A stretch of DNA of 64,000 nucleotides from a bacterium (GCA_016699105.1 CP064960.1:8727-72726), one strand, 5' to 3'. Shown: positions 3,479-52,291, numbered from the stretch's first letter. The notes: generated by a model from the letters alone, not told the origin. A program made the numbers and translations.

Positions 3479-3580
3479 GCTTTTCGCTCACCTGCGAGGT
3501 CCCATACTTTGTATGTAATCTCTTGCCTCGAAAAGCTCAAATGCAAGCATTTGGCTTTTCGCTCACCTGCGAGGTCCCAT
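3479..3580 (+). repeat. 27-bp direct repeat (gcttttcgctcacctgcgaggtcccat) at 3479-3505 and 3554-3580; second copy is tRNA-Glu leader plus first 8 nt of the tRNA
   Basis: Exact duplicate read in sequence; 48-nt spacer. Confidence 0.8.
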
Positions 3581-3647
3581 CGTCTAACGGTTAGGACAAC
3601 GGATTTTCATTCCGTCAACCGGGGTTCGACTCCCCGTGGGACTACCA
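3573..3647 (+). tRNA. tRNA-Glu (anticodon TTC)
   Basis: Cloverleaf. Acceptor ggtccca/tgggact, D arm tcgtctaacggttaggac, anticodon stem acgga/tccgt with loop ttTTCat, T arm cgggg-ttcgact-ccccg, discriminator a, encoded CCA. Confidence 0.85.
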
Positions 3648-8336: not shown

Positions 8337-8356
8337 ATATATTCCTGAGGGTTTCT

Positions 8357-10507: not shown

Positions 10508-10979
10508 GGGGCTCCGCTCGGGCGCGACTAACTTGCTGCGCTATCCCACCTGCTAGTAATTTGGTCGTAGATCCTTTCGGCTTCACCATCTTTGTCGTCA
10601 CTGACATGTACAAGATACCGAGCAGCCCATAAGCATCTGGGTATTTTGCCACTCGCCTCATGGCAGATATCGCCTCTGAAACAGAAAGGTCCTCACCCTT
10701 AATGAGTCGAGTGGATACCTCCGAGGCTAATTGCTTGGTCGGGTGGTTGAGTTTATCCAGACATACCGTTAGAAGTTCAATTCGCGCACTTTCGCTAACT
10801 TGCTTCTGGACATTCGTTGGCAGATAACAGAGTTCGTACATTATCGCGAAAACAGAATTATTAGAAAACGCCGCCGCTTTTGCAATTAATTCGTGTGCTC
10901 GGGTCTCATCGTTGTACGGGAAGTTTGCGTCGATTTCATCTAGAAATTCGAGCTCCTTGGTTGAGATATCGGCGCTCAT
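10314..10979 (-). CDS. Hypothetical protein (C-terminal about 60 aa is probably read-through)
   Basis: 221-aa ORF; low-complexity tail overlaps the 3' end of the convergent plus-strand gene. Confidence 0.25.
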   Translation of the reverse strand: MSADISTKELEFLDEIDANFPYNDETRAHELIAKAAAFSNNSVFAIMYELCYLPTNVQKQVSESARIELLTVCLDKLNHPTKQLASEVSTRLIKGEDLSVSEAISAMRRVAKYPDAYGLLGILYMSVTTKMVKPKGSTTKLLAGGIAQQVSRARAEPLIPNHSTPSRPPDRSRPAKSHPSCHASTAVTRPSWWYKNTSHPPRQSCAKSSCEFAAATWRYHR

Positions 10980-11219
10980 GACTCGGTTGTACCATCGACA
11001 TTACCGCTTATCTCAAAGGTAAATCCTCGTCCAGCATCGGCATGATCTTGAGTGACAAACTTTCTCGCCGCAACGTAGTCATCGTGCAGATCGGCTGCAT
11101 TCGGCTCAAAATTGATCGAATCAATCGAGAGCAGCTTATTTACGATATTCACGCCCCAAAGGGTCAGTCCTTTGATTCGGCCCAATCCAGTACCTCAACC
11201 GCAGTTTTGGGGTCAAATA

Positions 11220-11799
11220 TCAATGCCCCGTGAGAGATTTCTCCGAGCGCTCGTGTAAAGAATTCCTCCGGATTGGAGCGTCCTCATCATCCGGGGATAC
11301 ATAAAGGTCAATATCAATTGTCGATCCAAGACGGGAAATTCGTTTGACTTCGTCCGCTTCAAACCAAATGCCGGGCGACCAATCACGGCACCAATAGTAG
11401 TAGCCTACCTGGGTCGGATATTTAGCGGACAACTTAGCGATTTCAGCCTCGTGTGGTTCGAGGATCGATAGAAGGTTCTGGAGATGCACTTCAGGTCTCT
11501 CGGTTTCGGGAAGAGCCGATTCAAGCAACCAGAAGTTTTCTTTGATTTTGTATTTTGGGCGTCGGACGGGATCGGGCACATCGTTTTCTTCCGACCTTGG
11601 TCGGGGTTATGCCAATGATTTTAGTAATTTCGTCTGGGTCGACGTCAAACTCGTACACGCCAAAACTGAGGCGCGTTTCGTCTTTGGTGTTAATACCGGC
11701 TCGACGGTGGCTTGAATCGTTTGAGGGTTTTGTCATTGTGGGAATATTAGCATGATTAACCTTTATTCTGTTGTTAAGTTGCCGCACGCGGCGATTCAT
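11220..11799 (-). CDS. DUF4279 domain protein, frameshifted around 11521-11579
   Basis: LSFGVYEFDVDPDEITKIIGITPTKVGRK...YYYWCRDWSPGIWFEADEVKRISRLGSTIDIDLYV matches the DUF4279 signature (D.PDEIT...PT, C-terminal IDIDLY). Confidence 0.5.
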
Positions 11800-11888
11800 A
11801 CTTTCCTAAATCATCAAAAATAAACGGCTATGGATGATTGCGCCGTAATTAACACCACGAGCGGCACCAGGGGGAGTGATGACCCACT

Positions 11889-12515
11889 TTAACGATACCA
11901 CCCGGCTCTTTCGTTATCTTCAGCGGAGTAGAATATGCTTTCAACACTCTCATTATTCATCCTTGCAGTGATCATTGCCTTAATATCGTCATCGGTCAAA
12001 ACGATGATCATCCAATGGGGCGGATATAGATGCCAATGCCGTATAGCGTTGATAGCCTGGCTGCTTGGGAGTTGGCGTGTCAGGATTACCCTGAAAAGCC
12101 CATGCTCGGGTATCTCGTAGTCTTTAGCCTGGAGAACCTCAGAGTTGCCTATCGGTTTGGCGTCACTATAGTTTTTACATTCAAACACGATTGTATGCGT
12201 AGTGTATTTAGATTGAGACTGGCCCAATAATTACTTGTCGGGTTTGTTCTAGGCCTGTTTTTGACAAGAATATCCATACGTTGATGCCTATCCCAAGTGG
12301 TAGCTTGCTGCTCTAGATTGAACGCCTCAAAGCATTCGTCTAAACAGTACTTTAGAATTTCGGCACATATATCTTCGTATTGCCTCCACCCCGCAAAGCC
12401 CTTTTGGCAACCGTCGAGTTTACTAATTAACTCTGTCCCCCTTGAGGTGATGAGTTGGGACTTTTTAGCCTCAGGCGAAAAGGGATCAGATTGGCCTAGC
12501 TGTGAATCTTTACAA
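11889..12515 (-). CDS. Mrr-cat-like restriction endonuclease domain protein, frameshift near 12230; no start codon identified
   Basis: ...QRMDILVKNRP and TIVFECKNY resemble the Mrr catalytic core (D...(Q/E)CK.Y). Reading frame continues upstream of the annotated ORF in a second frame. Confidence 0.35.
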
Positions 12516-12743
12516 CTGAAATTGGCTCAGATTTAGGCTTCACTTGCGTAAGCCTCCATCATCGCGAGCGCCTCATCGAGTGAGCCCTGCCTAGCTGCTT
12601 CAAGTGCATTCACTTTTCTCAGGCTCTCAAGACGTGGCTCAAAACCAGTTGGCGCCTTCGACTTTTCTGCCAGATCGCTTATACCAAGCTTCAAGTTTAT
12701 CTAGGGCCAGGAAGTTTTTGCTTTTGCCAATCGCTCAAAGTAC

Positions 12744-13082
12744 TCATAGGCCAGGGACCAGATGTACGATGAATAGTTTAGATACTCGCCCCTGATCTTT
12801 TCTCAATAAATCTAGCGACACATCTAAAAGTTTGATGAATTCTTGAATATAGCGTTCATTGAGTCGTGTTAATGGTCGACCGAACTCCTTGTCGTGCAGT
12901 TCGTGCTCCAGAGGACCGACCTCATGCATCCCCATTTCCTCAACATGTGGAGCGGCACGTTCTTTTATCTGCTCAAAGCGCCAAATAGCGGCGTCCCTAT
13001 CGCTGAACAGCACAATTAATACTTCGTTCGCTGCGACGGCTAGCGGAGAGTATTTTGGGTCGCCGTCGTGCTGCCGGAACAA
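12744..13082 (-). CDS. Hypothetical protein
   Basis: 112-aa ORF. Confidence 0.3.
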   Translation of the reverse strand: MFRQHDGDPKYSPLAVAANEVLIVLFSDRDAAIWRFEQIKERAAPHVEEMGMHEVGPLEHELHDKEFGRPLTRLNERYIQEFIKLLDVSLDLLRKDQGRVSKLFIVHLVPGL

Positions 13083-13098
13083 TTTACGAAAATAACGT

Positions 13099-13476
13099 TT
13101 ATATTGTGTATCGCTGCGTTATCAGCTTAGACATCGCCCGTAAAGATGACTCTCGCTCATACACGCTGAATTTAATGTCTTCGACAAATGACTTCAGGAC
13201 TGGTATCGCAGTAGTTAAGATAGTGCCGGCCTTCAGGCATTCCTCGATCATATGGACATACGAATTCGGCATGTAGTATCTGGTATCATGGCGCTTATCC
13301 AGGTACCGTTTATTCAGCTCCACTATGTCCGACAACTCGATCTTGCCAAGCAAATCAAATAATAGCTTGCGATCGTCGTCATAGGCGAAGGGGATAAAAT
13401 TGATTAGATTTTGTTCATATTTTGTGCGGACAGTCTCCGCACCAACCAGCTCAACCGCACTCGCAGAGCGTCGCAA
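13099..13476 (-). CDS. Hypothetical protein
   Basis: 125-aa ORF. Confidence 0.3.
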   Translation of the reverse strand: MRRSASAVELVGAETVRTKYEQNLINFIPFAYDDDRKLLFDLLGKIELSDIVELNKRYLDKRHDTRYYMPNSYVHMIEECLKAGTILTTAIPVLKSFVEDIKFSVYERESSLRAMSKLITQRYTI

Positions 13477-13584
13477 TAATAGTGAGCATATTGGGTGATT
13501 GTGTAGTTGGTAGTAGAGCTTGACTCGTCACGGCTATTAATTCGACCTTGATTTCCTTAGGGTCCATCCTATCTAGCACCACCT

Positions 13585-14074
13585 CTACGGCAAGATGCTT
13601 GAGTCTCTCAACGTCCCTCTCGGTGATTTTGCCCGCCAGAGTATCCTTATCATGGATATATGTTCGAAATACTGTTGGAATATACTGATCTTTTCGGGCT
13701 CAAGGGCAATTCTAAAATTGTCATACAGATCATTTGCTCTTTGGCTATTTCTTTGCATGAGCCTGCAATGCGGCAGAGTTATCACTGATTATCCTGCGCT
13801 TTATTGCGTCATCTCGTATTGATTCTGCATCCTCCTGTACCAGTAAACTTATTAAGTTCTTAGCACTCGCCTCATCTGTTCGAGACTTATACCTTTCGTA
13901 TATCTCCAGATAATTATTGAGTGAAATTGTCTTGGATAATAACTTGGATAATGAGTATATATTCTCTTTGTCTTCGAGAGCTTCATATACTTCTTGCTGC
14001 ATACGTTGTTTCGTTTGAAAGAACATATTCAACAAGCTTATCGGTGAAATATGACCGCTCCGCATAGTATCCAT
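13585..14074 (-). CDS. Hypothetical protein (two overlapping frames, probably one gene)
   Basis: ORFs 13745..14074 and 13585..13785 overlap on the same strand. Confidence 0.25.
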
Positions 14075-14213
14075 GACTCTCTCCGTAGGCTCTCAGAATA
14101 AACGCTTTTACGGGCTCCAGTAGTCGTTTAGGATTTTGAGACTTTAATACATTTAGGATTTTGTCGTCCTGATGGCGCTCTCTGTCATTAAAGATGGATT
14201 CCCATCGAGAAAT

Positions 14214-15485
14214 TTATGAACATAGGCATCTTTTTGACCCCAAAATGGAGAAGAAGTTGCGGAGACCTGTCTCTGTTGTGATCTCATAGAAGCCATATCT
14301 CGCATATATTTCGCACCCCATGAGTAGTCCATCGGCCAAGTATTGAATGGTCTTTTTTGAATTAGGGGCAACTTCATAGCAGAAAATTAGGAATGCTTCG
14401 TGTACTAGTTTGTCGGGATGTTTGCTAGCAGGGGTGAGCCTATCAATATCCTTGCTCCTGTTGAACTTCCTAAGAGCACGCAAGGAACGACGCTGAAGCA
14501 CGCCGTTGTCCGATGAGTCGTTTGCGAACTGAATTAATAATTCGTGCCAGTAGTCATCCGGAGTGTCCAGCAACGAAGGGTTTACGGAAAGTATTTCATC
14601 TAAGATGCCGACGGCATTACCCATTTCAACGATGCGCTCCGTTTCGGTACCGCTGCCCTTGAGCAAGTCCTTATTCAATACGGAGATTTCGTTACTAGTC
14701 GCGAACCGAGAAAGGATATGTTCGGCTCCGTCCGGCAGCCAAATCTGCTTATCTTTGTAGAGTTTATATAGGAAAATGAAAAATTTATGCTTTTCATTTT
14801 CGTCTAAGATATCTTCCAGCCCCGCTAAGGCGATTGAATTAAGAAGATCTTCAACGACGACAGAGGGATTTCTCCGCAAGAGGCGCGCGAACCAACCACA
14901 GAGCCCAACATGCTGCGGGAATTGCAGTAGCAAACCGAGTACTTCATACCAATTCGGTGCAATTGCAATTTTCTTGCCATTTCGAGCAAAAATCGTCTCT
15001 AACAATGTTGGTGGACTGGCAACCTCAGCGATGTATAGGGCGGAGTAAAAAGAGTGAACCGAGGGATGGTAAAAAGTTACCAATTCTGATTCAAGAGACA
15101 ATATCCTTAACTCAATTAGATGCTCAATATCACCATGATCGAGAAAGCGTTCTGTTTCGGACAGAGAAAGGCTCACTACTTGCATGAGCTCCATCGCGAA
15201 TGCGAAGCGGCTCAATACGGTGCTAACGGCTTTATTGCCTACTAGCTGCTCATCGAGGTAAATAAAGAATCCTGCGCGACTAAACTTGACGATATTCCGA
15301 CTACTGACATAATCGCCGACCAGAGAAAGAAAATATCTATCTGATAATAAGCTGTGGAATAGGCTCGCTCTCCAAAATTGCCTGACGATTTCTTCGGGCA
15401 AGTTGGAGTTCTCGCCGGGTAGCCGGCCCCTTAGATAAATGGCCTGGTCTTGAGAGGACACTTCATTGTTATTGAAACTACTCAT
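14214..15485 (-). CDS. Hypothetical 423-aa alpha-helical protein, third gene of PLD-nuclease operon
   Basis: Large ORF with start overlapping the upstream 72-aa gene (ATGA-type coupling); no known motif recognised. Confidence 0.4.
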   Translation of the reverse strand: MSSFNNNEVSSQDQAIYLRGRLPGENSNLPEEIVRQFWRASLFHSLLSDRYFLSLVGDYVSSRNIVKFSRAGFFIYLDEQLVGNKAVSTVLSRFAFAMELMQVVSLSLSETERFLDHGDIEHLIELRILSLESELVTFYHPSVHSFYSALYIAEVASPPTLLETIFARNGKKIAIAPNWYEVLGLLLQFPQHVGLCGWFARLLRRNPSVVVEDLLNSIALAGLEDILDENEKHKFFIFLYKLYKDKQIWLPDGAEHILSRFATSNEISVLNKDLLKGSGTETERIVEMGNAVGILDEILSVNPSLLDTPDDYWHELLIQFANDSSDNGVLQRRSLRALRKFNRSKDIDRLTPASKHPDKLVHEAFLIFCYEVAPNSKKTIQYLADGLLMGCEIYARYGFYEITTETGLRNFFSILGSKRCLCS

Positions 15486-15700
15486 ATCTCCATTCCTCCG
15501 CGTTTGCCTGAGATGGCCATGTAAAGTTCATCCAGTATTTCAGGATTTGTATGAGCAATCCTTTTGTAACTCGCCTTCAAATATTCAAGCATCTCAACCG
15601 CAAACTCCCGGTTGGCATTCTCGGGGTGGAAGATGCGCAGGTAGTTTACCGTGGCCTCAACGTCTTTTTCGGTGATTTGGTAGTCGCTCATATCTTGCAT
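15482..15700 (-). CDS. Hypothetical 72-aa protein, middle gene of PLD-nuclease operon
   Basis: Small ORF 8 nt downstream of the PLD gene, overlapping the next gene. Confidence 0.35.
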   Translation of the reverse strand: MQDMSDYQITEKDVEATVNYLRIFHPENANREFAVEMLEYLKASYKRIAHTNPEILDELYMAISGKRGGMEI

Positions 15701-15707
15701 GATTGTA

Positions 15708-16205
15708 TCACCAAGTCCATTTCTTCAGACCGGCAAATTGGATCATCTGTCCGCACAGTTCTTCGGACTGGGTGCGGCGCATGACTTCGCGGCTGTTATT
15801 TTGGCTCAGGATGTTCAGACTCCCCTCCCACAAGATTTCGCCGTCGATGGCGGCCAGCTTGCGGTGTCGCAGATCGTCGCATGTATTCACCTTCACGCCT
15901 GCGGCCCGGAGCTGCTTGAGCGCCACCCAGGCTTGGATGCGCAGGTACTCGTCGTGGTGGTTGGGGTTGCGGGTATTGATACGCACCTTCACGCCGTGGC
16001 GGGTGAGCTTTGCCAGTACCGGCAGCAGTTGGTTTGTGCGCCGGGTGGTGAGATATGGGCTTTCGATGATGACTTCGCGTTTGGCGCGTTTGAGATCATT
16101 GATGAACGCGCCGTAAAACCGGCGCTCATCGTAGAGCTTTGACGTGAGGATGGCGGCCGGGTTGGGTTGACGGCGGAAGATGCTAAACATGCTCCACCTC
16201 CCCAT
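15708..16205 (-). CDS. Phospholipase D-family (HKD) endonuclease, Nuc/BfiI-like single-HKD protein
   Basis: HRKLAAIDGEILWEGSLNILSQNNS contains H-x-K-x4-D plus the GS.N tail of the PLD nuclease motif; 165 aa. Confidence 0.6.
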   Translation of the reverse strand: MGRWSMFSIFRRQPNPAAILTSKLYDERRFYGAFINDLKRAKREVIIESPYLTTRRTNQLLPVLAKLTRHGVKVRINTRNPNHHDEYLRIQAWVALKQLRAAGVKVNTCDDLRHRKLAAIDGEILWEGSLNILSQNNSREVMRRTQSEELCGQMIQFAGLKKWTW

Positions 16206-16285
16206 CGCCGACGCCGAGCTCTTCGAGCCGAGTGCTGAGTTGTACCAAACTAGGCCACAATGTGTTCCACATGCGTCCCGTTTGG

Positions 16286-16334
16286 CCTACCAAAGAAAAA
16301 CCCTCACGATATGTGGGGGTTTTTCTTTGGTAGG
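16286..16334. terminator. 18-bp perfect inverted repeat hairpin (cctaccaaagaaaaaccc / gggtttttctttggtagg)
   Basis: Read directly; lies between the island boundary and core genes. Confidence 0.45.
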
Positions 16335-16485
16335 TGTTCACGCGGGGAGGAGAACTGTATGGTTCGGTGGATGAGGAGCGCAGGGAACGGACAAGTTCAC
16401 TTGGACGATTTCCGAGCACCACAAGGAGGTGGCGTTAGCCACACTCCGTATGGGACTACCAGGAGTTATTGAAAATGATATGTTG

Positions 16486-18460: not shown

Positions 18461-20595
18461 GATTTCCTCCTTGCTTGACGGGTTTTGACGCTTTGGCTGG
18501 CAGGTCAAATCCAAATATCGAACCCTTACCTTCGGTGCTGCTAAATATGAGGGTTCCCCCTTGATCTTCTACTACTCGCTTGGCTAAGTAAAGCCCCAAG
18601 CCTGTTCCGTCTGGACGCACCCCTTGCGCATTTTCGGCGCGGAAGAATTTGCCAAACAACTTGCCCTGAGCCTTACGAGGCACCCCGATGCCCGTATCGT
18701 GCACTTCGAAATGAACACTCTTGGGCGTGCGACTCAGTAATATCCTCACCTCACCGCTGGGCGTATAATAGATAGCATTGTCAATAAAGTTCATGATGAC
18801 CTGTCGGGTTTTATTATCATCGAGGTCGACCAAAGGCCAGGCTTCAGCTGGGGGATTAAATATAAGGGCTATCTTTTTGGCTTCGGCATGCGAGCGCAAT
18901 TGCCGCACTTCGTCGGAGACCATTTTGACGAAGTCGGTGGGTGTAGGTTGGATAATGAAGCGACCAGCCGATAGTCTGGAAACATTGAGAAGGTCAGAGA
19001 TGAGGTTGACCATTCGTTGGCTAGCATCAAAACCATAGCCGACAAATTGATTTTGCATGGCTGTGAGCTTACCGGCATCGCCTTCGGAGAGCATCGACAA
19101 GTAGCCTTTAATAGTTGTAAGTGGTGTGCGCAGTTGATGTGAGGCCATGGAGATAAATTCGTCCTTAGCCTGATCGAGTTCTTTCAGATGACGGTTGGCA
19201 ATGCGCAAACGGTTGGTAGCATGTTCAACTCGCCCCTGAAGGGTAACGTTAAATTCTTTGATTTCCGCAAATGCCTTGGCGTTTTGTAATGCTACTGCTA
19301 GTTGTCGGCTGATAATTTCGAGTACTTTGATATCTTGATCCGAATAGACGTCGCCCGAAAGCTTATCGCCGATGAGTAGATAACCAATAAAATCCTCGCT
19401 CGTCCGCAACATAGTACTAATGCGTAGGTCATGATGCTCAAGAAGCTCTTTGCGCTTGCCGCCTTCGAGCTCGTCAGCGATGATCATCGATTGGTTGAGT
19501 TGGATGAGTTCCGAGCGCTACCATGAGGCGCTTAGGTAATACGCCATAATGCTCACAGCGATAGACCCGGTCATGGTTGAATACTACTATCTGAGCATAG
19601 GATATGTGCATCGATTGACATAAGGTGGGTGAGTGAATGTTTGAGTAGCCGATCGAGGTCGATCTCACTAACGAGGATTTTGGAAGGCGGCATTGAGCAC
19701 CTCTTGGGAATCGTAGTGGTCGCGGTAAAAGATATTGTTGGTGAGGCGCTCGAAAACTCGTCGTAATGGCTGAAATGCAAACAGAGATTACCGCCATGAA
19801 ACTATATGCCATAACTGGCGTCGGACGCCGAGGTATTTGGCCCAAAAACATATCGCGATGTTGCGATGAATAGCGCCCCAAAGCTCAATGCAGGCGTACC
19901 AAGGAGCATCACATACATGGCAGTACGGGCGATAACTGCTCGTATATCAAATAACCGGGTACGAATAATGGCATAGGCAATTGAAATCAAGTAGACAAGT
20001 GTAAAGATGGGGCCTAAGTAAACAAATTTATAATTGTTAGCCATGACCGGCAAAATCAAATTACAAATAATGCCCATGCCACAGCAACCGACATGCCCAA
20101 AGAAACTAATTGAATTTGAAGTTTTTGAATGCCACCAGTTTGATAGGATTTGAAAAGTGACAGTAATCCCACCCCGAATAGACCCATGTGATACCAAAGA
20201 CTTTGACGCCAAATATGGTTACAATTTCGCGGTTAGGTGTCACTGACGTAGCGCACACACCTGGGATGGCACTGACTACTGCCGATAAGCCACCGACTAA
20301 TAGTATGAGTCTATCTGGGGAGTATCCGCACTCGTGCAAATGAAGCGTTAAACAATGCGAAAAATGTAGCCGTCAACATGGCGCCCGAATAGCTAAACAA
20401 CGCGGTTGCAAACGTGTATTCGATTGGGACTACCCTGAATAACCCGTTCGTGAATGTCCACGTAGCTACACCAACTGTTAACCCGAAGTAATAACGGAAG
20501 GTTACGCTCTTGGTGTTCCGCAAAAATATCGCAAGTCCCAAGATGAGATTAGAAGCCGCAGCCACAAATAACAATACGCTCGGCAGATCGATCAT
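18417..20595 (-). CDS. Sensor histidine kinase (N-terminal polytopic membrane domain, GAF, HisKA, HATPase_c), split by several frameshifts
   Basis: HisKA H-box SHQLRTPLT, HATPase G-boxes (GTGLGL). GAF remnant and 7TM-like fragments in ORFs 19474..19881, 19802..20212, 20311..20595. Confidence 0.6.
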
Positions 20596-20607
20596 ATTGT
20601 TATTGTA

Positions 20608-21345
20608 TTATTCTTCTGGTTTGATTAATAGTCGTTTGGTGCGAGCAAATTTCCAAAGATGCAAGGGAGCTATGATACGTAAACGATTCCGGGCAGCCCG
20701 TAAGTCGATGGTGGCTAAATGTGTCGTCTTGCCATCGGGCGTGATTCCTTTACCAATTTCGGTAACTGGGAGCCATAGTTGATAGCGCAAACCCTTCATA
20801 AGGATGGGTGTTGTCACAAAATACCAACGCAAAATGGCCGGATGTGCGAGCTCAGACCGACCATAGACGAGCCGATATATGTTCGTGAGTATGCGTTTGA
20901 GCATTAGTTTATTCTTGCCGATATAATCCATATCAATAATCAGCCGGGAAATATCGGCGGCACCGTCGCTGGGATAGTCAGTGCCATGGTGCAATAAATC
21001 GCTAAAATATTTTCTAGTCATAGTACTTGATGGCACATCATCCGGTGTGAGACGGCAGTACCCAATAATGACATCTCCTTGAAATGCCCCGAAATGATAA
21101 GAATATTCATCAAATTCGTCAGATTCTGTTTGAGTATCAGGATTTCCATCAATCCAATGCATTTTTTGTACACAGATGCGATAGCGGAATTCATACGCGA
21201 GTCGGAAGTCGGCTGGTGTGTTGAGCTCTCGGTAATTTATCTCATTTTCGACGAAGCCGATAATTTCGGCTGACGGATCCAAGGTTCCGGTCGGTAGTGC
21301 AATCATGAGCTTAATATTGACACCTAGACATATATGTGTCAACAT
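20608..21345 (-). CDS. OlsB/FeeM-like N-acyltransferase (acyl-amino-acid synthase family, LuxI-like fold)
   Basis: 245 aa; N-terminal FRLAYEFRYRICVQKMHWI resembles the LuxI/OlsB acyltransferase N-motif. Divergently paired with a PlsC-type O-acyltransferase. Confidence 0.35.
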   Translation of the reverse strand: MLTHICLGVNIKLMIALPTGTLDPSAEIIGFVENEINYRELNTPADFRLAYEFRYRICVQKMHWIDGNPDTQTESDEFDEYSYHFGAFQGDVIIGYCRLTPDDVPSSTMTRKYFSDLLHHGTDYPSDGAADISRLIIDMDYIGKNKLMLKRILTNIYRLVYGRSELAHPAILRWYFVTTPILMKGLRYQLWLPVTEIGKGITPDGKTTHLATIDLRAARNRLRIIAPLHLWKFARTKRLLIKPEE

Positions 21346-21371
21346 GTTCTTAGAAGCTTTTTATTACTTAT

Positions 21372-22037
21372 ATGCAAGCGCTCGACACAGTCAATACCGG
21401 ATCGCGCTCTAGCTGGCTCGAAAAAAAATATTCACAGCGAGTCATTTTTGCGTGGCAACGCGTTATATTCTGGACTTTTTACACACTAGGACCGATTTGG
21501 CGACGAAGCTTGGTCAACGAACTGACTGAAGCTGATGTGGTACACGGTACCCGCTATGTGGTAGCTGGAAACCACCAACGGGCGATCGACCCATTTTATA
21601 TCTGTACCCAAATCCCCTATCGGATCTGGAGACATATGGGTTCCCTCAATTACTTTACGGCCAATAAGTTCATGGACACTCCCGTGATCGGAAAAGCATT
21701 GCTCCGGTTTGGCTGTTTTCCAGCTAAAATTCATCATAAGTACCCGTTTGGCCTCGACTATGCCCATAAAATGCTTGGTCGTGGCAATACTATCTTGATC
21801 TTTCCTGAGGGCAAACGTACCCGACGCGGCGAAACTGAGGCTCGCAAGGGCGTTCAAGTGTTGGCTCATGAACCAAATGTCATGGTGATTCCAGCCCACA
21901 TCGAGTGGACGAAACGCTGGTTTGGCTATACCTTCAAGCTTGGAATTGGCAAACCATTTGATGCCAGCGCCATGACTGCCCAAGAAATACTGGACCGGGT
22001 GTACGCTCAACCTGTCGATCGTGTTGGTCATAAATAA
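21372..22037 (+). CDS. Lysophospholipid acyltransferase (PlsC/LPLAT family; OlsA-like)
   Basis: AGNHQRAIDP (H-x4-D catalytic motif) and FPEGKRTRRGE (FPEGTR motif). Confidence 0.65.
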   Translation: MQALDTVNTGSRSSWLEKKYSQRVIFAWQRVIFWTFYTLGPIWRRSLVNELTEADVVHGTRYVVAGNHQRAIDPFYICTQIPYRIWRHMGSLNYFTANKFMDTPVIGKALLRFGCFPAKIHHKYPFGLDYAHKMLGRGNTILIFPEGKRTRRGETEARKGVQVLAHEPNVMVIPAHIEWTKRWFGYTFKLGIGKPFDASAMTAQEILDRVYAQPVDRVGHK

Positions 22038-22314
22038 CATTATATCTTGCGATTTTAAGTAACTTTTAGTACACTTTTCTTGACTGGACTAAATTATTGT
22101 TGTATTTCAAGAATTCTGAACTCACTAAAACCTATAAAGTCGCTCTCAATACCGTACTTAATTGGATTAAGGCGGCTCAAAACGGCAAGCTTGATATAGA
22201 GCTCGTAAAAAAAGGCGAGCGTTTTTCATTGCCAATACGGCGCGAAATATTAATGCTCTCAATGATTTAGCAATTAGTCGTAAGAAATATCGCAATAGCC
22301 GTACGGCGCGTCGA

Positions 22315-23328
22315 GTGGTGCCTCATGATCATTTCTATGAGGTATATAGCGAGTCGGAGATTTTAGATATAGTGGCAACACTTGATGTGCGTCGAGAAGT
22401 ACCTCGTGCTTATAACTATTTTGATGATGGAGCGCATTATTGGGATAAATATGCCCATGAGCTTGAAGCTCAAGACACACCAAATATCATGAACCGCACC
22501 CGCTCACTGTTAGACGCTAATCAAGGTTACATAGATACACTCATTAAACCATTTCATCGTGTCAATGTTATTGATATTGGGGTCGGAAATGCACTTCCAG
22601 TTCGATCATTTCTCGGTAACCTCTTGTCGAGCGGTAAGTTAGGTCGCTATTTGGCTTTAGATATCAGTCCCGGTATGCTCGAAATTGCGGAACAAAATAT
22701 CAAGTCTTGGTTTGACGATAAGATAAATTTTGAAGGCCATAAAATAGATATTACACACGAACGGTTTGGTAATTTTCTGGCCAATGAGTATCTCAACAAC
22801 CAGTCAGAATCAACTATCAATTTGATTTTATTTTTAGGCGGGACATTGGGCAATTTACGAGCGCCTGCCGACACGCTTGCCGTTATTGCTAATAGCATGG
22901 GTCGCGCGGACATGCTCTTGATGTCGCAAAAACTTGATTCAACACGTACGCGTCACTATTTTGATTTCAATACTTCGCCGAATAACCCTTCATTAGCGCC
23001 AATACACCGATTTGTATTTGATATGTTGAATATTGATGAGTCATTATATCGAGTAGAAATGGGCTTTCATCCAGAACACCATGCTCGATACATTCGAGTA
23101 CATTTAATCGTTTCGTTGCAGATTGAATTCCGGTTAGCAGACGGAATCCGATTAATATCCCTGGAAAAGGGAGACTCCATTTTATTGTGGTATTTCTGGC
23201 AACAAACTTTACCGGAAGTATCTGATCAACTGATCAAAGGCGGCTTTTACCCGATTCACCTTAGTCAGTCGCCAGATAAAGAATATCTCCTGAGTATTGC
23301 GCGATTAGACTCAAGTCTGACTTTTTAA
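22315..23328 (+). CDS. EgtD-like SAM-dependent N-methyltransferase (Methyltransf_33-type)
   Basis: VIDIGVGNALPVRSF...LALDISPGMLEIAEQN and FLGGTLGNL match the EgtD family glycine-rich and FLGSxIGNF motifs. Confidence 0.45.
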   Translation: MVPHDHFYEVYSESEILDIVATLDVRREVPRAYNYFDDGAHYWDKYAHELEAQDTPNIMNRTRSLLDANQGYIDTLIKPFHRVNVIDIGVGNALPVRSFLGNLLSSGKLGRYLALDISPGMLEIAEQNIKSWFDDKINFEGHKIDITHERFGNFLANEYLNNQSESTINLILFLGGTLGNLRAPADTLAVIANSMGRADMLLMSQKLDSTRTRHYFDFNTSPNNPSLAPIHRFVFDMLNIDESLYRVEMGFHPEHHARYIRVHLIVSLQIEFRLADGIRLISLEKGDSILLWYFWQQTLPEVSDQLIKGGFYPIHLSQSPDKEYLLSIARLDSSLTF

Positions 23329-23615
23329 TACTGTCTCGAATATTTCTCTATACATCGTAACTACAGCCAGAGATTCTGAAGCAATTTAGTGTTGCATGTG
23401 CGTACAAAAAGTCATATGATGAATAAAGAAAGTTCATCATTTGCCAAAACTGTCACACTAATCTAACAAAGGATTAATTTTCATGGCACTGTAAATCAAT
23501 ACCAACTACCCTTTTTAAAAGGACTGATATACTTGCTTGTTACGCGGGACGCCAGCTTTTTGGCACCGCGTTTTATATTGCCACTTGCATCTGGCGCAAG
23601 TGGAGACGTACACTC

Positions 23616-24005
23616 TTGAGTATGAGTACCAAGATCAAGATAGCCATCATTGAAGATGATGCTTCAATCGTCCAAATGTATCAGACCAAGTTTGAAGCCG
23701 AAGGGTATGAAGTGAAAACCGCAGGCGACGGTGTGGCTGGTTTGCAGCTATTACAGGACTTCGCCCCTGATGTTGTTTTGCTCGATTTGATGATGCCAAA
23801 CATGAACGGGCTGGATATGTTGAGTAAATTACGCAATGCCCCAGGCGGGCGGGAAGTGCGTGTCATTGTATTAACTAATATGGGCGACACAGAAACAGCT
23901 ACCAAAGTGTATAAGATGGCTGCCGATGATTATATCGTCAAAGCCGAGATGACCCCTTCGGAAGTATTAGGGCGGGTCAAAGATTTGTTGGCAAAGACAA
24001 GATAG
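23616..24005 (+). CDS. Single-domain response regulator (CheY-like), paralogue of 18023..18460
   Basis: IAIIEDD...VVLLDLMMPNMNGLDML...YIVKAEMTPSEV. Confidence 0.75.
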   Translation: MSMSTKIKIAIIEDDASIVQMYQTKFEAEGYEVKTAGDGVAGLQLLQDFAPDVVLLDLMMPNMNGLDMLSKLRNAPGGREVRVIVLTNMGDTETATKVYKMAADDYIVKAEMTPSEVLGRVKDLLAKTR

Positions 24006-38140: not shown

Positions 38141-39115
38141 TTAAGCTCGGTACTTACCGGGGCTAAAAGCCCGTCGGATGTCATTTGTCATAGTACCCAC
38201 GAGAGTAGCGGTATCGTTATCGAGCTTAGCTGAGGCTTTTTCCCAGTCGATTAAGTTTGGTGCCACCGTGAGACCTTCGAAGTGACGAGCCCACTGGTTT
38301 TCGACGCCCAAGGCGATAGCGTATGGTAAGAGTTCATCAAAATGAGCAACGGACTTGAGTGGAGGGTGTCGGAAATTGAGTCGGTCTTGCTCGGCAACCT
38401 CCAGATATTGCTTAAAACCTTGAATTTCGGCCCACAGCGCCCTCCCCTTCTTGGTGCGACCAGAGGGCAACCACGTCAGCCAAAGATAAAGTACCGCGCA
38501 CAGGAGGCAAACAAGCGCCGCTATCGGAGAGTAAGCAGCATTTGGACTCGTTTCCATAGTGATAGCCATAAGGGTGAAATACCCAACTGCTGCCCACAAC
38601 GATACCGCGGTGATCCAGTAGGCCTTAGCCGTCAGAGAGTGTTGAGAGTAACCTTTTGAGGCAATGGCGTCTCCCAAGCGGTAGCGAAACTCGTTGACCT
38701 GGCTTTGGTATACCCGATTATTGAGAAGCATGTCACTGAGTAAAGCCGATTTCTTGCCTTGTAGAATACCCACCAAAAGCGTTTCTTCAAACTGGGGAAG
38801 TTTGTTGGTGGGCTGAAGCAAAGCAATCTGATAATTGGCCGAGCGCCAACCCGCTTTGGGTTTGACGAGTTCAAGCTTGATAATCTGCCGGTTTACCAGA
38901 TCAACGAGCGTAGCAGTAATGTCGTTTTGGTTGCCATGCGGAGAGTCGAGTATACTCAGGTGCGCGGGCGCCAAACCTTTGGGCGGCTCATATTGAGGGA
39001 TTATAGGTTGCCGATGGAGCTGATAATGTTGCCTGATCCGCTTCCCTAGCCGCGTCATCAGACCAACAGCCACCAGTACGTTGGCGATCAACACAATGTA
39101 TTCGGTTAGTGTCAT
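38141..39115 (-). CDS. DUF2207-like membrane protein
   Basis: N-terminal TM, YEPPKGLAPAHLSILD motif typical of DUF2207, two further TM helices. Confidence 0.4.
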   Translation of the reverse strand: MTLTEYIVLIANVLVAVGLMTRLGKRIRQHYQLHRQPIIPQYEPPKGLAPAHLSILDSPHGNQNDITATLVDLVNRQIIKLELVKPKAGWRSANYQIALLQPTNKLPQFEETLLVGILQGKKSALLSDMLLNNRVYQSQVNEFRYRLGDAIASKGYSQHSLTAKAYWITAVSLWAAVGYFTLMAITMETSPNAAYSPIAALVCLLCAVLYLWLTWLPSGRTKKGRALWAEIQGFKQYLEVAEQDRLNFRHPPLKSVAHFDELLPYAIALGVENQWARHFEGLTVAPNLIDWEKASAKLDNDTATLVGTMTNDIRRAFSPGKYRA

Positions 39116-46356: not shown

Positions 46357-46445
46357 GTAGTCTATTGTATATATAATAGACTTTTATGTCAATTTAGCAT
46401 AAATTCTATGGAGGGTCATCTAGGGTTGCTGCTGGGCAGATATTA

Positions 46446-46490
46446 CCAATACAAAACCCCCCACCAGGCTGGGTGGGGGTTTTGTATTGG
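46446..46490 (-). terminator. Rho-independent terminator hairpin for tRNA-Lys (20-bp stem, U tract), begins at the CCA
   Basis: ccaatacaaaaccccccacc / ggtgggggttttgtattgg inverted repeat followed on the minus strand by UAAUAU. Confidence 0.6.
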
Positions 46491-48128: not shown

Positions 48129-48147
48129 GCCTACCTCAATAAAACCA

Positions 48148-48348
48148 AAATAAGCACCTACTGACGTAGATGCTTATTTTGGTGCGCCCGGCAGGATAGC
48201 GGCTTCGCCTTTTCCCTGCGGTGCTCGGAATATGCCCAAGCCAGCTTGGTCGCATTCCTGCGCTCCTCGTTTACCGAACCTGATGCAGGTTCTCACCCAC
48301 CGTGCGCCATAACCCAAAATAAGCACCTACTGACGTAGATGCTTATTT
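48148..48348 (-). ncRNA. tRNA-Arg-linked structured element E1. Terminator copy (48148-48179) + 137-nt element (48180-48316) ending in a copy of the tRNA-Arg 3' terminus ...atcctgccgggcgcacca + tRNA terminator (48317-48348)
   Basis: 49-nt direct repeat 48148-48196 = 48317-48365. Internal GNRA hairpin cgcaGGAAtgcg, covariation versus the second copy at 52 kb. Confidence 0.5.
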
Positions 48349-48424
48349 TGGTGCGCCCGGCAGGATTCGAACCTGCGACCCCTTGGTTCGAAGCCAAGTA
48401 CTCTATCCACTGAGCTACGAGCGC
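48349..48424 (-). tRNA. tRNA-Arg (anticodon TCG)
   Basis: GCGCTCGTAGCTCAGTGGATAGAGTACTTGGCTTCGAACCAAGGGGTCGCAGGTTCGAATCCTGCCGGGCGCACCA. Confidence 0.85.
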
Positions 48425-48469
48425 GCCTGGCTATTTTACTCTGTTGGCGAAATAGAGTCGAGAGTCTAA

Positions 48470-48929
48470 TCGCGTTTAGGTGTGACGGTCGCTACTTCGG
48501 CGTATCCGGCTGTCATCAAAATAGTGGCCACACTTTGGTTGCGGGCGGCATCTGGACCATAAATGTAGACTGGTTTTTGAGGTCGATCTTGGGTAATTCA
48601 CCGTCTTCGATGAGCGCAGCATCAAAGTTGACGGCACCTTTGGGATGCTTAGCTTTATAAGCGGCAGCCGTACGGACGTCTAATAAGACTCCTTGGCCTT
48701 TGGCGACTACAGTCGTAGCAGCAGCCAAGCTGACGGCCGTAGCTCCAGCCACCTGCGGCTGGGCAGTTGGAGTTGGTGAACTCAATGGTGCTACCGATGG
48801 TAATGGTGCTGGTGGGCGACTTGGTTGAACGACATGGGCTTGCTTGGTTCCCGAATAAAATCCCATGAAGCCAGCTACCACAGCCAGTACGCCGATACTA
48901 AGAGCTATAACGCTTACGGTAGCTTTCAT
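48470..48929 (-). CDS. Membrane-anchored rhodanese-like domain protein (active-site Cys apparently replaced), frameshift near 48570
   Basis: VLLDVRTAAAYKAKHPKGAVNF rhodanese N-motif. Alternative frame continues ...PVYIYGPDAARNQSVATILMTAGYAEV (CRSG loop position lacks Cys). Confidence 0.4.
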
Positions 48930-48977
48930 ACATAAATCATACCACGGTTATAGGCGAATGTACTGTATATTAAGGTT

Positions 48978-51487
48978 ATGCTTTTTTACCAAGAACGAAT
49001 CCAGGATTTATATCGCCGCCTGGAAACCAGCGAACAAGGCCTGAGCAACCACGAAGCGGCTGCTCGTCTAAAAAGTCATGGCCGCAATGAAATTGTGGTT
49101 AAAGGCGAGCCGTGGTGGCATCAGGTAGTAGAGCCATTCCGCAATGTGTTTATGCTCGTGCTACTCGGTGCGGCGGTATTGAGTCTAGCCACCGGCCATT
49201 TGACCGGCGGGATCATTGTGAGGGTGATCGTGGGCGTGAGCGCCGTGATTTTTTATGTGCAAAATTATTCGACATCCCGCGTGCTCAAGGCGCTGCGTCA
49301 ATACAATAAGCAGCTGGTAGAAGTCTGGCGCGGCGGCGAGGCCATTAGTGTAGCTTCGGAAGAATTAGTGCCAGGAGATGTCGTTGGTTGCCACGAGGGT
49401 GATAAAGTACCAGCGGATCTGCGGCTCGTGCGTGCCGATACCTTGCGCTGCGACGAGTCAATGTTGACTGGTGAAAGTTTGCCGACAACCAAACAATTGC
49501 ATCCGCTGACTGGTGAACATCAACCATTTGAGCAATCCAATATGTTGTTTCAGGGATCGTTCATTGTGAGCGGAGATAGTCTCGGCGTGGTGGTCGCTAC
49601 AGGTAACCAGACCGAATTTGGGCGGCTGGCAACTCTGGCTGAAGGTGAACGAATGACCAGTCCAGTGCAGGCTAAAATAAACAGATTAGTGACACAGTTG
49701 ATGTTGGCTGCCATTGGGTTGGCTGCCATCGTGTTGGCATTGGAATTGTTCCGCGGCATATCGCCAAGTGAGGCTATCCGGTTTGCTTTGAGCTTAACAG
49801 TGTCGCTGGTACCCGAAGATTTGCCCGTGGCATTATCGATTATTTTGGTACTGGGCGTGCGGCGTATGGCCAAGCGGCATGCTTTGGTGCGTAATATGCA
49901 AGCGATCGAAGACCTGGGTATGGTGACGGTCATTGCGACAGACAAAACTGGTACCTTGACCAAGAACCAACTAGCGGTTCATCAAATCTGGCAACCAGAA
50001 GGTGCTGGCCGGCGCGTAGTGGCGGCGGGACTCGCTGCACTAGCCGCCAATCAAACGGACGGCCGCACACACGACCCACTCGACCACGCCCTACTAGAAG
50101 CAGCGAAGCGGATGCGGGGTAAAATACCAAAATCGTACCGACTGCATGCTAGTTTACCTTTTGAACAAACAGCTGCCATGAGTGGTAATGTGTGGCGAGC
50201 TGGGCAAGGGTTTGAAATTGTTATCAAGGGCGCTCCAGAAGGAATATTCAAATTGAGCCGGTTAAGCGGGCAAGCCTTATCAGCGGCCGAAACGGCTTTT
50301 GAGCACCTGACGAGTCAAGGCTGGCGGGTGTTGGCACTGACTCATACGAGTACGCGCCGAGAAGTAGCCAAGCTCCATGAATTACCCAAGACTGGATGGG
50401 AATTTGACGGACTGCTAGCGGTCGCTGACGAGTTGCGACCAGAGGCTGCAGCCGCCATCAAAACAGCCCGGCAAGCTGGCATCGAAGTCATTATGATTAC
50501 CGGCGATCATCGTAATACGGCATATACTATCGGCAAACATTTAGGGTTAGTGACGACGCCAAACCAGGTACTTGATAGTTCACAAGCCGATTCAATGCCC
50601 GAAAGCGGGCTGAGGCGGGCATTGCAGACTGTGCGCGTATTTGCACGGGTAACGCCAGAGACGAAGTTCCGACTCCTGGGTGCCCTCAAGAAGCGTGAGA
50701 TTGCGGCTATAACTACGGCGACGGCGTCAATGATGTACCGGCTCTGCGCAACGCCCACGTCGGCATTGCGATGGGCAGTGGCTCAGCTTTGGCCCGTGAA
50801 GCCGGCGATATTGTGCTGCTTGATAATAATTTCAAAAGCATTGTGGAAGCCATTCGAGAAGGGCGGGCGATTGTGTCAAATATCCGGCGGATGCTGTTTT
50901 ATTTGCTATCGACCAGTGCTGGCGAAGTGCTCACGATGATCGGCGCGTTGGTATTGGGATTGCCGTTGCCAGTGGCAGCCGTGCAAATTTTGTGGATCAA
51001 CCTGGTGACCGATACGGCGTTGGTGATTCCGCTTGGGCTGGAGCCAGCTGAGCGTCACGCCATGAAGACTCCCCCGCGCGACCCCAAAGCCCCCATTTTG
51101 GACCCGGTGATGATCGTACGGATGGTATTGGTAGCGGCCGTCATGGCCAGTGCGGCCCTAGCGACCTTCCACTATTTGTTGCAAAACCACACGACTGAAT
51201 ATGCCCGGACGGTGACATTCTCCGTGCTGGTAGTCTGCCAATGGGCGAATGCGCTCAATGCTCGAGCGGAAGTGGCTTCAGCCTTTAGCCGATTGCGGGT
51301 GCCCAACAAGAGTCTGGCCTTTGGTTTGAGCGCTGCCCTAGTGATGCAAATACTGGCTTTGACGATACTGGCGCCCTTACTGTACCTGGTGCCCGTAGCT
51401 TGGACCGATGTTGTGCTCTATAGCGCCTTGGGAGCAGTGGCGGTGATAGCCGTGAGTGAGCTGCACAAATTGACAGTGCGGCGGTAA
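48978..51487 (+). CDS. Cation-transporting P-type ATPase (P2-type), frameshift(s) near 50700-50770
   Basis: DKTGTLT phosphorylation motif, TGES, MITGDH; GDGVNDVPAL hinge motif readable only in an alternative frame at about 50715-50760. Confidence 0.8.
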
Positions 51488-51562
51488 TATTTTTGAGCGG
51501 ACTTATTACTTAAAAAACGTTATTATCTATTTTTGATAAATAGATAATAACGAATTGAGTGG

Positions 51563-51952
51563 CTAAACTTTTATCGTCATGCAGGCAATTCGTCGCGGGA
51601 CACCAGGTAGCGTGACGGCGCCACACACATTGGTGCCAGAGCGTGCCCACATATTGATATCCCAAGTGCCACTGCTACCGTTCTTGCTTTTGTAAAAGCC
51701 GTCTCCCCATATCTCAAGAAAACCACTACCACCCATTGAATATACACTTACTTGCTGGACTAGCTGGGTGCGATTTTGGGTGTTCTTGGCTCCGGTAAAC
51801 ACCTCTAGGCATGATACTTTGTGGCAGCCGCTAAAATGCGCTGCTTGCACAGGCGCCGCTGACATCAGCGGTATACCCACAGACAATAGGGTCAGGAACA
51901 GGCCGTACACTATCCGCGAACGATTGAAGACGTTCATGCAAACCTCCCGCAC
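51563..51952 (-). CDS. Small secreted hypothetical protein (signal peptide, 4 Cys)
   Basis: N-terminal MNVFNRSRIVYGLFLTLLSVGIPLMSAAPVQA signal-like segment. Confidence 0.3.
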   Translation of the reverse strand: MREVCMNVFNRSRIVYGLFLTLLSVGIPLMSAAPVQAAHFSGCHKVSCLEVFTGAKNTQNRTQLVQQVSVYSMGGSGFLEIWGDGFYKSKNGSSGTWDINMWARSGTNVCGAVTLPGVPRRIACMTIKV

Positions 51953-52017
51953 AATTAATTACTTACACTATATATACTGAATTGCGAATATGTACATCGT
52001 ATTCGAGCAAGTAAACA

Positions 52018-52216
52018 AAATAAGCCCTCCTGACGGAGGGCTTATTTTGGTGCGCCGAGAGGATTGGGGCTATCGCCCCTTCCTGTGGTGCTCGGAATAT
52101 GCCCAAGCTTGCTTGGTCGCATTCCTGCGCTCCTCGTCCACCGTACCCCACGGGGGTTCTCGCCCCTACGGCCACATGAGACCAAAATAAGCACCTACTG
52201 ACGTAGATGCTTATTT
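52018..52216 (-). ncRNA. tRNA-Arg-linked structured element E2. Terminator-like hairpin (52018-52047) + 137-nt element (52048-52184) ending ...aatcctctcggcgcacca (mimics tRNA-Arg-CCG 3' end) + terminator (52185-52216)
   Basis: Same length and conserved core (ACGAGGAGCGCAGGAATGCGACCAAGC..GCTTGGGCATATTCCGAGCACC) as E1, with compensatory stem changes. Confidence 0.5.
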
Positions 52217-52291
52217 TGGTGCGCCCAGAGGATTCGAACCCCCGACACCCAGTACCGGAAACTGGTGCTCTATCCCCTGAGCTACGAGCGC
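52217..52291 (-). tRNA. tRNA-Arg (anticodon CCG); T-stem appears 1 nt short (possible indel)
   Basis: GCGCTCGTAGCTCAGGGGATAGAGCACCAGTTTCCGGTACTGGGTGTCGGGGGTTCGAATCCTCTGGGCGCACCA. Confidence 0.75.

Follow-up and report, generated by a model that had tools for sequence, protein, structure and literature searches.

Probable genes for a previously undescribed family of structured small RNAs, built on remodelled tRNA copies, in a Saccharibacteria-like genome

What is the structured element that follows two different tRNA-Arg genes in a 64,000-nt stretch of bacterial DNA (GCA_016699105.1 CP064960.1:8727-72726; here called the window, with all coordinates referring to the whole stretch)? A preliminary description had noticed the same module on the minus strand immediately downstream of tRNA-Arg(TCG) and of tRNA-Arg(CCG), and ARAGORN, Rfam and alignment agree on the positions of both genes and on the recurrence of the module after each. 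The elements within these modules are structured, they derive from tRNA and they recur on other contigs; each is probably the gene for a small structured RNA, one of a family not described before, whose base is a remodelled copy of the adjacent tRNA. The host appears to be a small Saccharibacteria-like genome, and the best non-self matches of the ATPase and PLD-like proteins encoded in the window are to named Candidatus Saccharibacteria or Saccharimonadales.

Module 1 opens with the tRNA-Arg(TCG) gene (48349..48424, −; Rfam tRNA 72.7 bits), which encodes its CCA and is the parent of element E1. Hairpin 1 follows (48313..48352, −), with a stem that begins at the ACCA of the tRNA (ACCAAAAUAAGC...GCUUAUUUUGGU) and a tail, GUUAUGG, that is not U-rich; it is a member of a repeat family and is identical in module 2 at 35/35 positions. 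An 8-nt linker (48308..48315, −) leads from hairpin 1 to E1 and is not conserved between strains, reading GGGT-TATG in the window and GGTTCTACT in strain L010. E1 itself (48180..48307, −; 142.5 bits with covariance model R1 and 126.6 bits with the broader model R2) is followed by hairpin 2 (48144..48183, −), a second copy of hairpin 1 that continues into UUUUAUU and is called as an intrinsic terminator. In module 2, which lies 3867 bp away and is 88% identical when the two are aligned from tRNA to second hairpin, the parent is tRNA-Arg(CCG) (~52217..52291, −; found by ARAGORN, with 47.7 bits in Rfam vs 63.4 for its counterpart in a sister species), and it is followed by hairpin 1 (52181..52220, −, identical to that of module 1 by repeat alignment), element E2 (52048..52175, −; R1 138.1 bits, R2 128.6 bits) and a diverged copy of hairpin 2 (52016..52049, −; tail UUUACUU), likewise called as an intrinsic terminator. 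Much of what had been read from the sequence at the outset holds: the two copies do not differ in their core blocks, E1 and E2 each terminate in the 3' end of their own tRNA including CCA (16/16 positions in E1, 15/16 in E2), and the direct repeat formed by tRNA 3' end and hairpin, which has diverged in module 2, is without a mismatch over ~53 nt in module 1. The length of 137 nt must be revised, since it counts in the non-conserved linker of 8-9 nt; counted from the base that opens the closing helix through ACCA, E1 and E2 both measure 128 nt.

The predicted fold is a four-way cloverleaf. Along the minus strand, E1 contains the two strands of P1, a 12-bp helix (5' strand 48296-48307; 3' strand 48184-48195, a copy of the T-stem and acceptor 3' strands of the tRNA) after which ACCA follows (48180-48183), then a first hairpin, HP1 (48276-48292), of the form GAAC-NN(N) / (N)NN-GUUC, a core (48220-48275) made up of junction strands and a long hairpin, P3, and a small hairpin, HP3 (48199-48211). 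The strands that flank P3, ..GGUGGACGAGGAGCGCAG.. and ..YCGAGCACCGCAGGGA.. (11 and 9 nt), are invariant, and because they never vary, pairing of either GGUG:CACC or GGAGC:GCACC is possible between them. P1 is continuous, with an acceptor-like 7 bp extended by five pairs of the next 5' bases with the copied T-stem 3' strand; its pairs form in 88% of cells, and one column pair (10:149 in alignment A6) reads U.G in E1, G-C in E2 and A-U in L017, the sister-species contig. A local T-arm, in which the conserved GCAGG would pair with the copied T-stem 3' strand, was considered and rejected, with 49-65% of its cells pairing vs 88% for P1.

Selection on RNA structure, which had been argued from differences between the two copies, is borne out by compensatory changes in homologues found elsewhere through covariance-model and pattern searches. 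The hairpins aacctgCATcaggtt / aacccccGTggggt and ggcGAAgcc / ggggCGATAgcccc are real and covary by pair counts. A proposed GNRA hairpin (cgcaGGAAtgcg) does not survive comparison, as the sister species breaks it (CGCA GAAA TATG) and its bases belong to the long-range helix of P3: in L017, GGAATGCG...CATATTCC is replaced by GAAATATG...CATATTTC, so that the CGCA/TGCG hairpin is broken and P3 is kept and perfected (GGAAUGCG:CAUAUUCC becoming GAAAUAUG:CAUAUUUC), and the inner hairpin of P3 changes from CCAAG/CUUGG to CAGAG/CUUUG. In distant homologues the entire sequence of P3 differs and pairing persists. Across nine sequences, 88.5% of cells form a standard pair, vs 37-47% when partners are slid by 1-3 columns; both sides have changed in 26 of 41 pairs, including five of eight and five of five pairs in P3, and 0/500 shuffles reach the observed values. 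RNAalifold, given the same alignment, independently predicts P1, P3 and HP3. No conserved start codon or reading frame was found in the elements, the frames of E1 and L017 differing by inspection.

Such elements are neither limited to two copies, as first reported, nor tied to tRNA-Arg. A search with R1, which was built from close copies, revealed a third copy in the window, E3 (16336..16461, +; 126 nt; R1 68.3 bits, E 5e-14; R2 100.7 bits), that had been missed and that is framed on tRNA-Glu. In the sister species, in which the ATPase between the modules is 89% identical as protein and ~73% as DNA and both tRNA-Arg genes stand in the same arrangement, tRNA-Arg(CCG) is followed by a hairpin and a homologous element that is ~82-84% identical and ends in the 3' end of its own tRNA; the E2/L017 orthologues lie beside a flanking gene of 73% nucleotide identity. 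A search pattern made of positions invariant in E1, E2 and L017, for which <1 chance match was expected, returned four true homologues from Joint Genome Institute (JGI) metagenomes. One of these (L026) lies after a tRNA-Arg(CCT) gene and hairpin and terminates in the 3' end of that tRNA; another (L025, Candidatus Saccharibacteria RIFCSPHIGHO2_12_FULL_41_12) belongs to a tandem array of three units, each ending ...CCCCAGCCA; a third (L022) has no adjacent tRNA; and the fourth (L021) occupies the fusA-tuf intergenic region (2316-2433, +), on the opposite strand to both genes and without the tRNA frame. A relaxed pattern added one real core copy, on a phage contig (L031) with terminase and ribonucleotide reductase genes; the other four of the five matches in that viral scan were due to chance. 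Thus one copy is framed on tRNA-Glu, one contig has a G73-type tRNA-like end, and three copies are without a neighbouring tRNA.

All nine copies (E1, E2, E3, L017, L021, L022, L025, L026 and L031) share the invariant GAGGAGCGCAG and YCGAGCACC around the long covarying hairpin. The tRNA-derived frame, that is P1 with a copied tRNA 3' end and ACCA plus HP1 built on GGUUCG, is full in E1, E2, E3, L017 and L026. Taken together, the orthologous pair E2/L017, the occurrence in the named genome L025 and the lack of a conserved start codon imply that the element is not a transient duplicate. Other searches were negative within their scope. Among annotated phages there was a match to the tRNA part alone; a viral scan with a longer P3 found nothing; nine matches to the 19-mer GGAGCGCAGGAATGCGACC among species-representative genomes were all chance hits in GC-rich coding DNA; and the flanking glycosyltransferase, used as a handle to relatives, returned itself and one 29% match.

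Two of these loci carry further features. On the 13.5-kb phage contig the core (5129-5196, −) has a longer, three-segment P3 and no tRNA frame, and its flanks (~300 nt) look structured and may belong to a larger RNA. In L025 the three tandem units (7925-8400, −) each have a hairpin and the last is the family member; the middle unit (8096-8243) starts with UUGAGAA likewise, and its different, very stable multi-hairpin interior (z = −4.75) has no Rfam match. The units end in a G73-type tRNA-like 3' end, which may resemble that of E. coli tRNA-Gln, and no tRNA was called in the 10.8-kb locus.

Where did the frame come from? The element is best described as what appears to be a tRNA paralogue in which part of the D-arm was removed by a short deletion, most of the anticodon arm was lost and a conserved insert came to lie at the T-loop. 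The 3' frame matches its own tRNA best in all five copies compared, with scores of 36, 32, 26, 38 and 28 vs ≤30 for other tRNAs. In L017 the arrangement is most legible, as GGGGUUCG, insert, AAUCCCUCC gives the exact T-arm of its tRNA when rejoined, and GGGGUUCG, insert, AAUCCCUCCGGGCGCACCA corresponds to the tRNA T-arm and 3' end split between G57 and A58. The 5' frame aligns to the 5' third of the tRNA (acceptor 5' strand and D-arm remnant): nucleotides 3-22 of E1 match nucleotides 10-30 of the tRNA at 16/21 positions, L017 retains CGCCCG....TCAGGG, and CGGGGAGGAGAAC in E3 aligns to CGGUUAGGACAAC in tRNA-Glu. HP1 replaces the anticodon arm; its 3' strand is the T-stem 5' strand plus GGUUCG, and its 5' strand, which no tRNA supplies, stays complementary to the T-stem 5' strand. 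The family model R1 also weakly matches the tRNA-Arg genes themselves (11-13 bits). Because the 5' part is itself tRNA-derived, the term hitch-hiking, which had implied an independent mobile element, is better replaced by that of a remodelled tRNA paralogue than by that of a foreign insert.

Similarity among these modules is a mosaic. The core is identical at 49/53 positions between modules 1 and 2 and at 44/53 between the E2 module and L017, and hairpin 1 at 35/35 and 25/35, whereas the 5' frame between hairpin 1 and the core agrees at 21/34 positions between modules 1 and 2 and at 27/34 between the E2 module and L017. This mosaic indicates that short-tract gene conversion has probably occurred repeatedly, both between modules and between an element and its tRNA. 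Copies would arise via tandem duplication of tRNA genes, with short-tract conversion keeping them like their neighbours and swapping cores and hairpins from one module to the other.

The third copy bears on the age of the association. The 3' end of E3 copies that of tRNA-Glu(TTC) at 11/11 positions (UGGGACUACCA), the element ending ...CUCCGUAUGGGACUACCA and the tRNA ...CUCCCCGUGGGACUACCA, and tRNA-Glu is its best 3'-frame match by a score of 26 vs ≤12 for others. The parent gene (3573..3647, +; called by ARAGORN and evident in the sequence) lies 12.7 kb upstream on the same strand. Between them is an integrated island of ~12.6 kb at the 3' end of tRNA-Glu(TTC) (3648-16250, + strand context), with low GC content over 8-16 kb, a large serine recombinase directly 3' of the tRNA whose Resolvase and Zn_ribbon_recom domains are divided between two open reading frames (ORFs; 3725-4756 and 4590-5477), and, at its far end, a PLD-like gene (15708-16205) and a decayed tRNA-Glu 3' half that marks the distal junction. 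This half (~16253-16292, recognised by alignment to the tRNA-Glu 3' half) is overlapped by a strong hairpin (16287-16333) that sequesters its ...CUACCA, and the segment as a whole (16253..16333, +) appears to be the displaced original tRNA-Glu end and hairpin that once joined tRNA-Glu to E3. On the standard picture, integration of the island into the tRNA-Glu gene would have moved the original 3' end, hairpin and E3 to the far junction. Since the island was inserted upstream of the hairpin and E3, the element would have been resident before the island arrived.

How might the elements be expressed? In module 1 the sole promoter-like site lies upstream of the tRNA (48461-48433), and because none lies between tRNA and element, the latter would be transcribed by read-through of the tRNA's hairpin 1, with transcription ending at hairpin 2 and its U-tract. 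A terminator scan called hairpin 2 in both modules and did not call hairpin 1. In strain L010 (453-500, compared with 48144-48183 of the window) the stem of hairpin 2 carries a double change, AAAAUAAGC...GCUUAUUUUGG to AAUAUAAGC...GCUUAUAUUGG; this is a compensatory A>T / T>A exchange and supports a function for hairpin 2. Helices of 12 bp that end in ACCA are the classical minihelices on which RNase P and 3' trimming enzymes act, and because P1 with its ACCA resembles a tRNA minihelix, RNase P would be expected to cut at the 5' end of P1 and 3' exonucleases to trim to CCA, as for a tRNA. P1 would in this manner mimic the stacked acceptor/T-arm 'top half' of tRNA, and the tRNA frame would act as a natural expression and stability scaffold that gives defined ends. 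Given that E3 and L022 have lost their tRNA neighbour and that L021 and L031 are without the frame, the core is likely to be the functional module and the frame its vehicle. The partly single-stranded invariant junction (AGGAG and several GGA) looks like a candidate binding platform for a protein or another RNA.

Several observations weigh against a small-RNA gene of this kind. The 3' side of hairpin 1 is rich in U (UUAUUUU), and this hairpin may end a share of transcripts, or may terminate efficiently, before the element is reached. In the sister species tRNA-Arg(TCG) is followed by the hairpin alone, and the element is likewise absent from the PLD loci L032-L043; this absence from several related loci means that it is dispensable or often lost. 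(A 'stub' of E1 after the sister-species tRNA-Arg(TCG) was not significant, with 31/500 shuffles scoring as high, and the downstream DNA is not syntenic.) The frame is partial in L025 (P1 8/12) and L022 (P1 7 bp, no ACCA) and absent from L021 and L031, from which it follows that a tRNA-like end is not essential to the core. Specificity of the 5' frame for its own tRNA is marginal. The alignment behind the pair counts was fitted to the model and holds nine or ten sequences, about seven of them independent, and the strand signal (G.U vs A.C, 23 vs 16) is weak.

These weaknesses must be set against those of other explanations, of which the one closest to the original impression is that hairpin, linker and element form a miniature non-autonomous integrative element, a ~169-bp unit flanked by attachment (att) repeats from the tRNA 3' end and mobilized by an integrase in trans, with the tRNA-like end of the element serving as the attP identity segment. 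The perfect ~53-nt direct repeat around E1 (diverged in module 2), the variable presence of copies among close relatives and the copy on a phage contig would all suit such a unit. So would the habits of this genome, in which tRNA 3' ends do serve as integration sites, as the island with its serine recombinase at tRNA-Glu attests, and in which a downstream copy of the tRNA's own 3' end is present after 4/4 tRNAs, that of tRNA-Lys being nearly empty. However, modules 1 and 2 neither contain nor adjoin a recombinase, recombination of a circle as small as 169 bp is implausible, and no clean empty site was found, the L017 locus being non-syntenic downstream. The tRNA-derived 5' part is complementary to the repeat, as befits an RNA helix and not an att site; site-specific recombination would give no reason for P3 and HP3 to covary; and the tRNA-Glu island entered upstream of a hairpin and E3 that were already resident. 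An integrative element is quite improbable, and of the explanations offered in the preliminary description it is the less likely one, while a tRNA-coprocessed small RNA or an uncharacterised tRNA mimic comes close to the small-RNA gene favoured here.

The constant position right after tRNA and hairpin, with no promoter of its own, instead invites the idea that the element is a cis-acting 3' trailer, one that either controls how the upstream tRNA is terminated, processed or stabilized or shields the downstream gene as an insulator. Segments complementary to or copied from the tRNA T-arm strands could compete with folding of the precursor tRNA, four mutually complementary T-stem-like segments would permit two alternative folds by reasoning from sequence, and Rfam classes the comparable RtT RNA as cis-regulatory. 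A trailer nonetheless seems unlikely, as termination offers no obvious use for the invariant core and P3, copies persist intact with no tRNA beside them (E3 since the island came in, the phage copy in L031, L021 and L022), and other tRNAs, including tRNA-Arg(TCG) of the sister species, do without the element. That the elements are functionless by-products, i.e. decaying tandem partial tRNA duplicates (pseudogenes) homogenized by gene conversion and covarying through the tRNA arms they copied, is very improbable. Although the frame is tRNA-derived, conversion is evident, presence among relatives is patchy, the tRNA-Lys copy is almost without interior and copying from different tRNAs by itself produces part of the covariation in P1 and HP1, P3 and HP3 have no tRNA origin and their pairing survives complete sequence turnover. 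Moreover, the junction strands of 11 and 9 nt do not vary between contigs with flanking proteins that are 49-50% identical or unrelated, the 5' strand of HP1 is held complementary to the T-stem 5' strand with no tRNA to supply it, and the core is carried by a phage.

Some of the smallest differences between copies need to be read with care, as the assembly probably carries homopolymer indels that make exact lengths and 1-nt differences in module 2 uncertain. This is suspected because the P-type ATPase between the modules (48978-51487, +) is split into two overlapping ORFs and is intact at 835 aa in near-identical contigs, because the serine recombinase at tRNA-Glu is likewise split into two ORFs, because tRNA-Arg(CCG) (in the stretch 52221-52232, −) and E2 are each one base short in C/G runs relative to the sister species, and because A-run lengths differ between the window and strain L010. 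In alignment the T-stem 3' strand of tRNA-Arg(CCG) is one base (C) shorter than in L017, and this missing base is possibly an assembly error. Several metagenome contigs stop exactly at the hairpin 2 repeat, from which it follows that the repeat breaks assemblies; such repeats explain the assembly breaks seen in metagenomes at these tRNA loci.

Other features of the window touch the modules less directly. The region downstream of tRNA-Lys (46409..46487, −) has a terminator hairpin followed by 37 nt that end in a near-copy of the tRNA-Lys 3' end (14/16, at 46409-46424), a module-like layout with almost no interior, and the family model gave no significant match there (6.9 bits). A tRNA-Arg 3'-end match at 38452-38467 lies inside a coding sequence and was dismissed as chance. 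In a 99%-identical strain (L020:74-1462) and in the sister species (L017:816-2170), the rhodanese gene and tRNA-Arg(TCG) are separated by a cellulase-like gene of ~1.2-1.4 kb; this gene is missing at 48425-48515 of the window, and the rhodanese ORF there is shorter, too (137 aa vs 152-155). The lowest GC content of the window, 0.433 vs ~0.51 elsewhere, is at 20001-24000.

The PLD-like gene beside E3 has a counterpart, 49% identical, that adjoins the L022 copy. None of 12 PLD-like loci of relatives (56-81% identity) contains the element, and the shared neighbour is a sign of a shared island type and not of a functional link. This small gene is widespread in Saccharimonadales in mobile-looking contexts (L032, L034, L040, L043 and a JGI contig of P0129), with neighbours that include type IV secretion genes, a serine recombinase with a bAvd-like gene, an IS1595 transposase, PIN toxins and HTH genes; the PLD-like gene is preceded by a conserved, overlapping ORF of 45 aa and followed by one of ~72 aa.

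Is any of this already known under another name? Permissive searches of Rfam 15 with every copy, by which the suggested check for a known family was made, returned tRNA, a sub-threshold match to RtT and a 14.4-bit match to permuted transfer-messenger RNA (tmRNA), and the literature searched held no account of the core motif or of RNAs of this sort in Patescibacteria. ARAGORN called no tRNA inside any element and Rfam gave no tRNA match there even at E up to 10, the T-loop being interrupted and the anticodon arm absent. The family is new to databases, and its frame is of the RtT type, a known but obscure kind.

The RtT model (RF00391) aligns to E1 end to end at 17.7 bits, vs a gathering score of 45, and no RtT match was found in E2 (E up to 10), E3, L025 or the other copies. 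When R2 was applied in turn to the E. coli tyrT locus, four of four RtT units aligned in register at 10-16 bits, with alignment confined to the frame (P1, GGUGAGAAC, HP1 with GGUUCG, and AAUCC...CACCA) and 41-54 interior positions skipped. Both kinds of unit lie downstream of a tRNA gene on the same strand and end in a copy of the T-stem and acceptor 3' strands of that tRNA plus CCA, with which the 5' strand pairs to form P1; in both, (A/G)UGAGAA(C/G)C comes next after P1, ahead of a hairpin formed from the T-stem 5' strand and GGUUCG. The RtT interior is placed between T-loop positions A58 and A59 (AAGGUUCGA, interior, AUCCUUCC). In contrast, the interiors are unrelated, the 54-position core being skipped in the alignment, and the parent is tRNA-Tyr of the tyrT operon in Enterobacteria vs Arg(TCG), Arg(CCG), Glu(TTC) and Arg(CCT) in Saccharibacteria-like genomes. 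RtT units are tandem, with 3.14 repeats, whereas the copies in the window are single, and RtT overlaps the tpr ORF whereas the elements here are without a conserved ORF. RtT thus follows the same architectural principle and is not a demonstrable member of the family. The function of RtT is itself still poorly defined (bioRxiv 10.1101/2024.07.17.603846; PMC3318445).

Other tRNA-like systems resemble the elements in part. In the engineered 'tRNA scaffold' of Ponchon and Dardel a structured RNA is placed inside a tRNA body, recognised by tRNA-processing enzymes and stable in vivo (PMC3753655), and the natural frame described here may act likewise. The scaffold, however, is artificial, and the tRNA that carries it is intact except for the anticodon stem-loop, in whose place the cargo stands. 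In the elements it is the T-loop position that holds the cargo, and the D and anticodon arms have been remodelled or removed. The tRNA-like domain of tmRNA, the mascRNA of MALAT1 and the bacterial Y RNA YrlA all have an acceptor/T-arm-like helix and a CCA end and are matured by RNase P and related tRNA enzymes; unlike these, the elements have no T-loop, tag ORF or Ro-binding helix, and they copy a specific neighbouring tRNA. ARAGORN found no tmRNA, the 14.4-bit permuted tmRNA match spans the tRNA, and Rfam gave no YrlA match in the elements. Islands integrated at tRNA 3' ends, of which the one at tRNA-Glu in the window is a real example, share a direct repeat of the tRNA 3' end downstream, but what the modules have between their repeats is limited to a hairpin, a linker and a structured RNA of ~110 nt with a tRNA-derived 5' end, with no integrase, and selection here acts on RNA pairing. 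A group I intron was considered for L025 and rejected, given that Rfam returned no intron match and that the elements fall short of the size needed; a related paper deals with group I introns located in anticodon loops (PMC13011429).

The L025 tandem array holds two different cargos in the same frame, and RtT has that same frame with another cargo. A bolder reading, unlikely as a whole, is that a natural 'tRNA scaffold' is common to bacteria as far apart as Saccharibacteria and E. coli (with its RtT), that duplicated tRNA genes turn into carriers whose T-loop position takes interchangeable structured cargos, that units of cargo and frame spread among tRNA genes and are actively re-framed to suit each new host tRNA, and that the core is a mobile functional module used by phages as well. 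As part of that same unlikely whole, re-framing would proceed by a dedicated DNA- or RNA-level mechanism and not by slow compensatory mutation, and, to give one example within it, the core might act as a decoy or sponge for a tRNA- or ribosome-binding factor.

The small-RNA gene favoured here adds a conserved non-coding RNA family with a phage-borne relative to the Saccharibacteria and the candidate phyla radiation, where few are known, and models R1 and R2 are usable on all Saccharibacteria genomes. RtT was described decades ago and has until now been an isolated curiosity. That the same tRNA frame recurs in a phylum unrelated to that of E. coli, around a core that is different and strongly conserved, suggests that tRNA duplicates have a general route to becoming carriers of small structured RNAs, and the family offers a second, comparative handle on the role of RtT-type RNAs.

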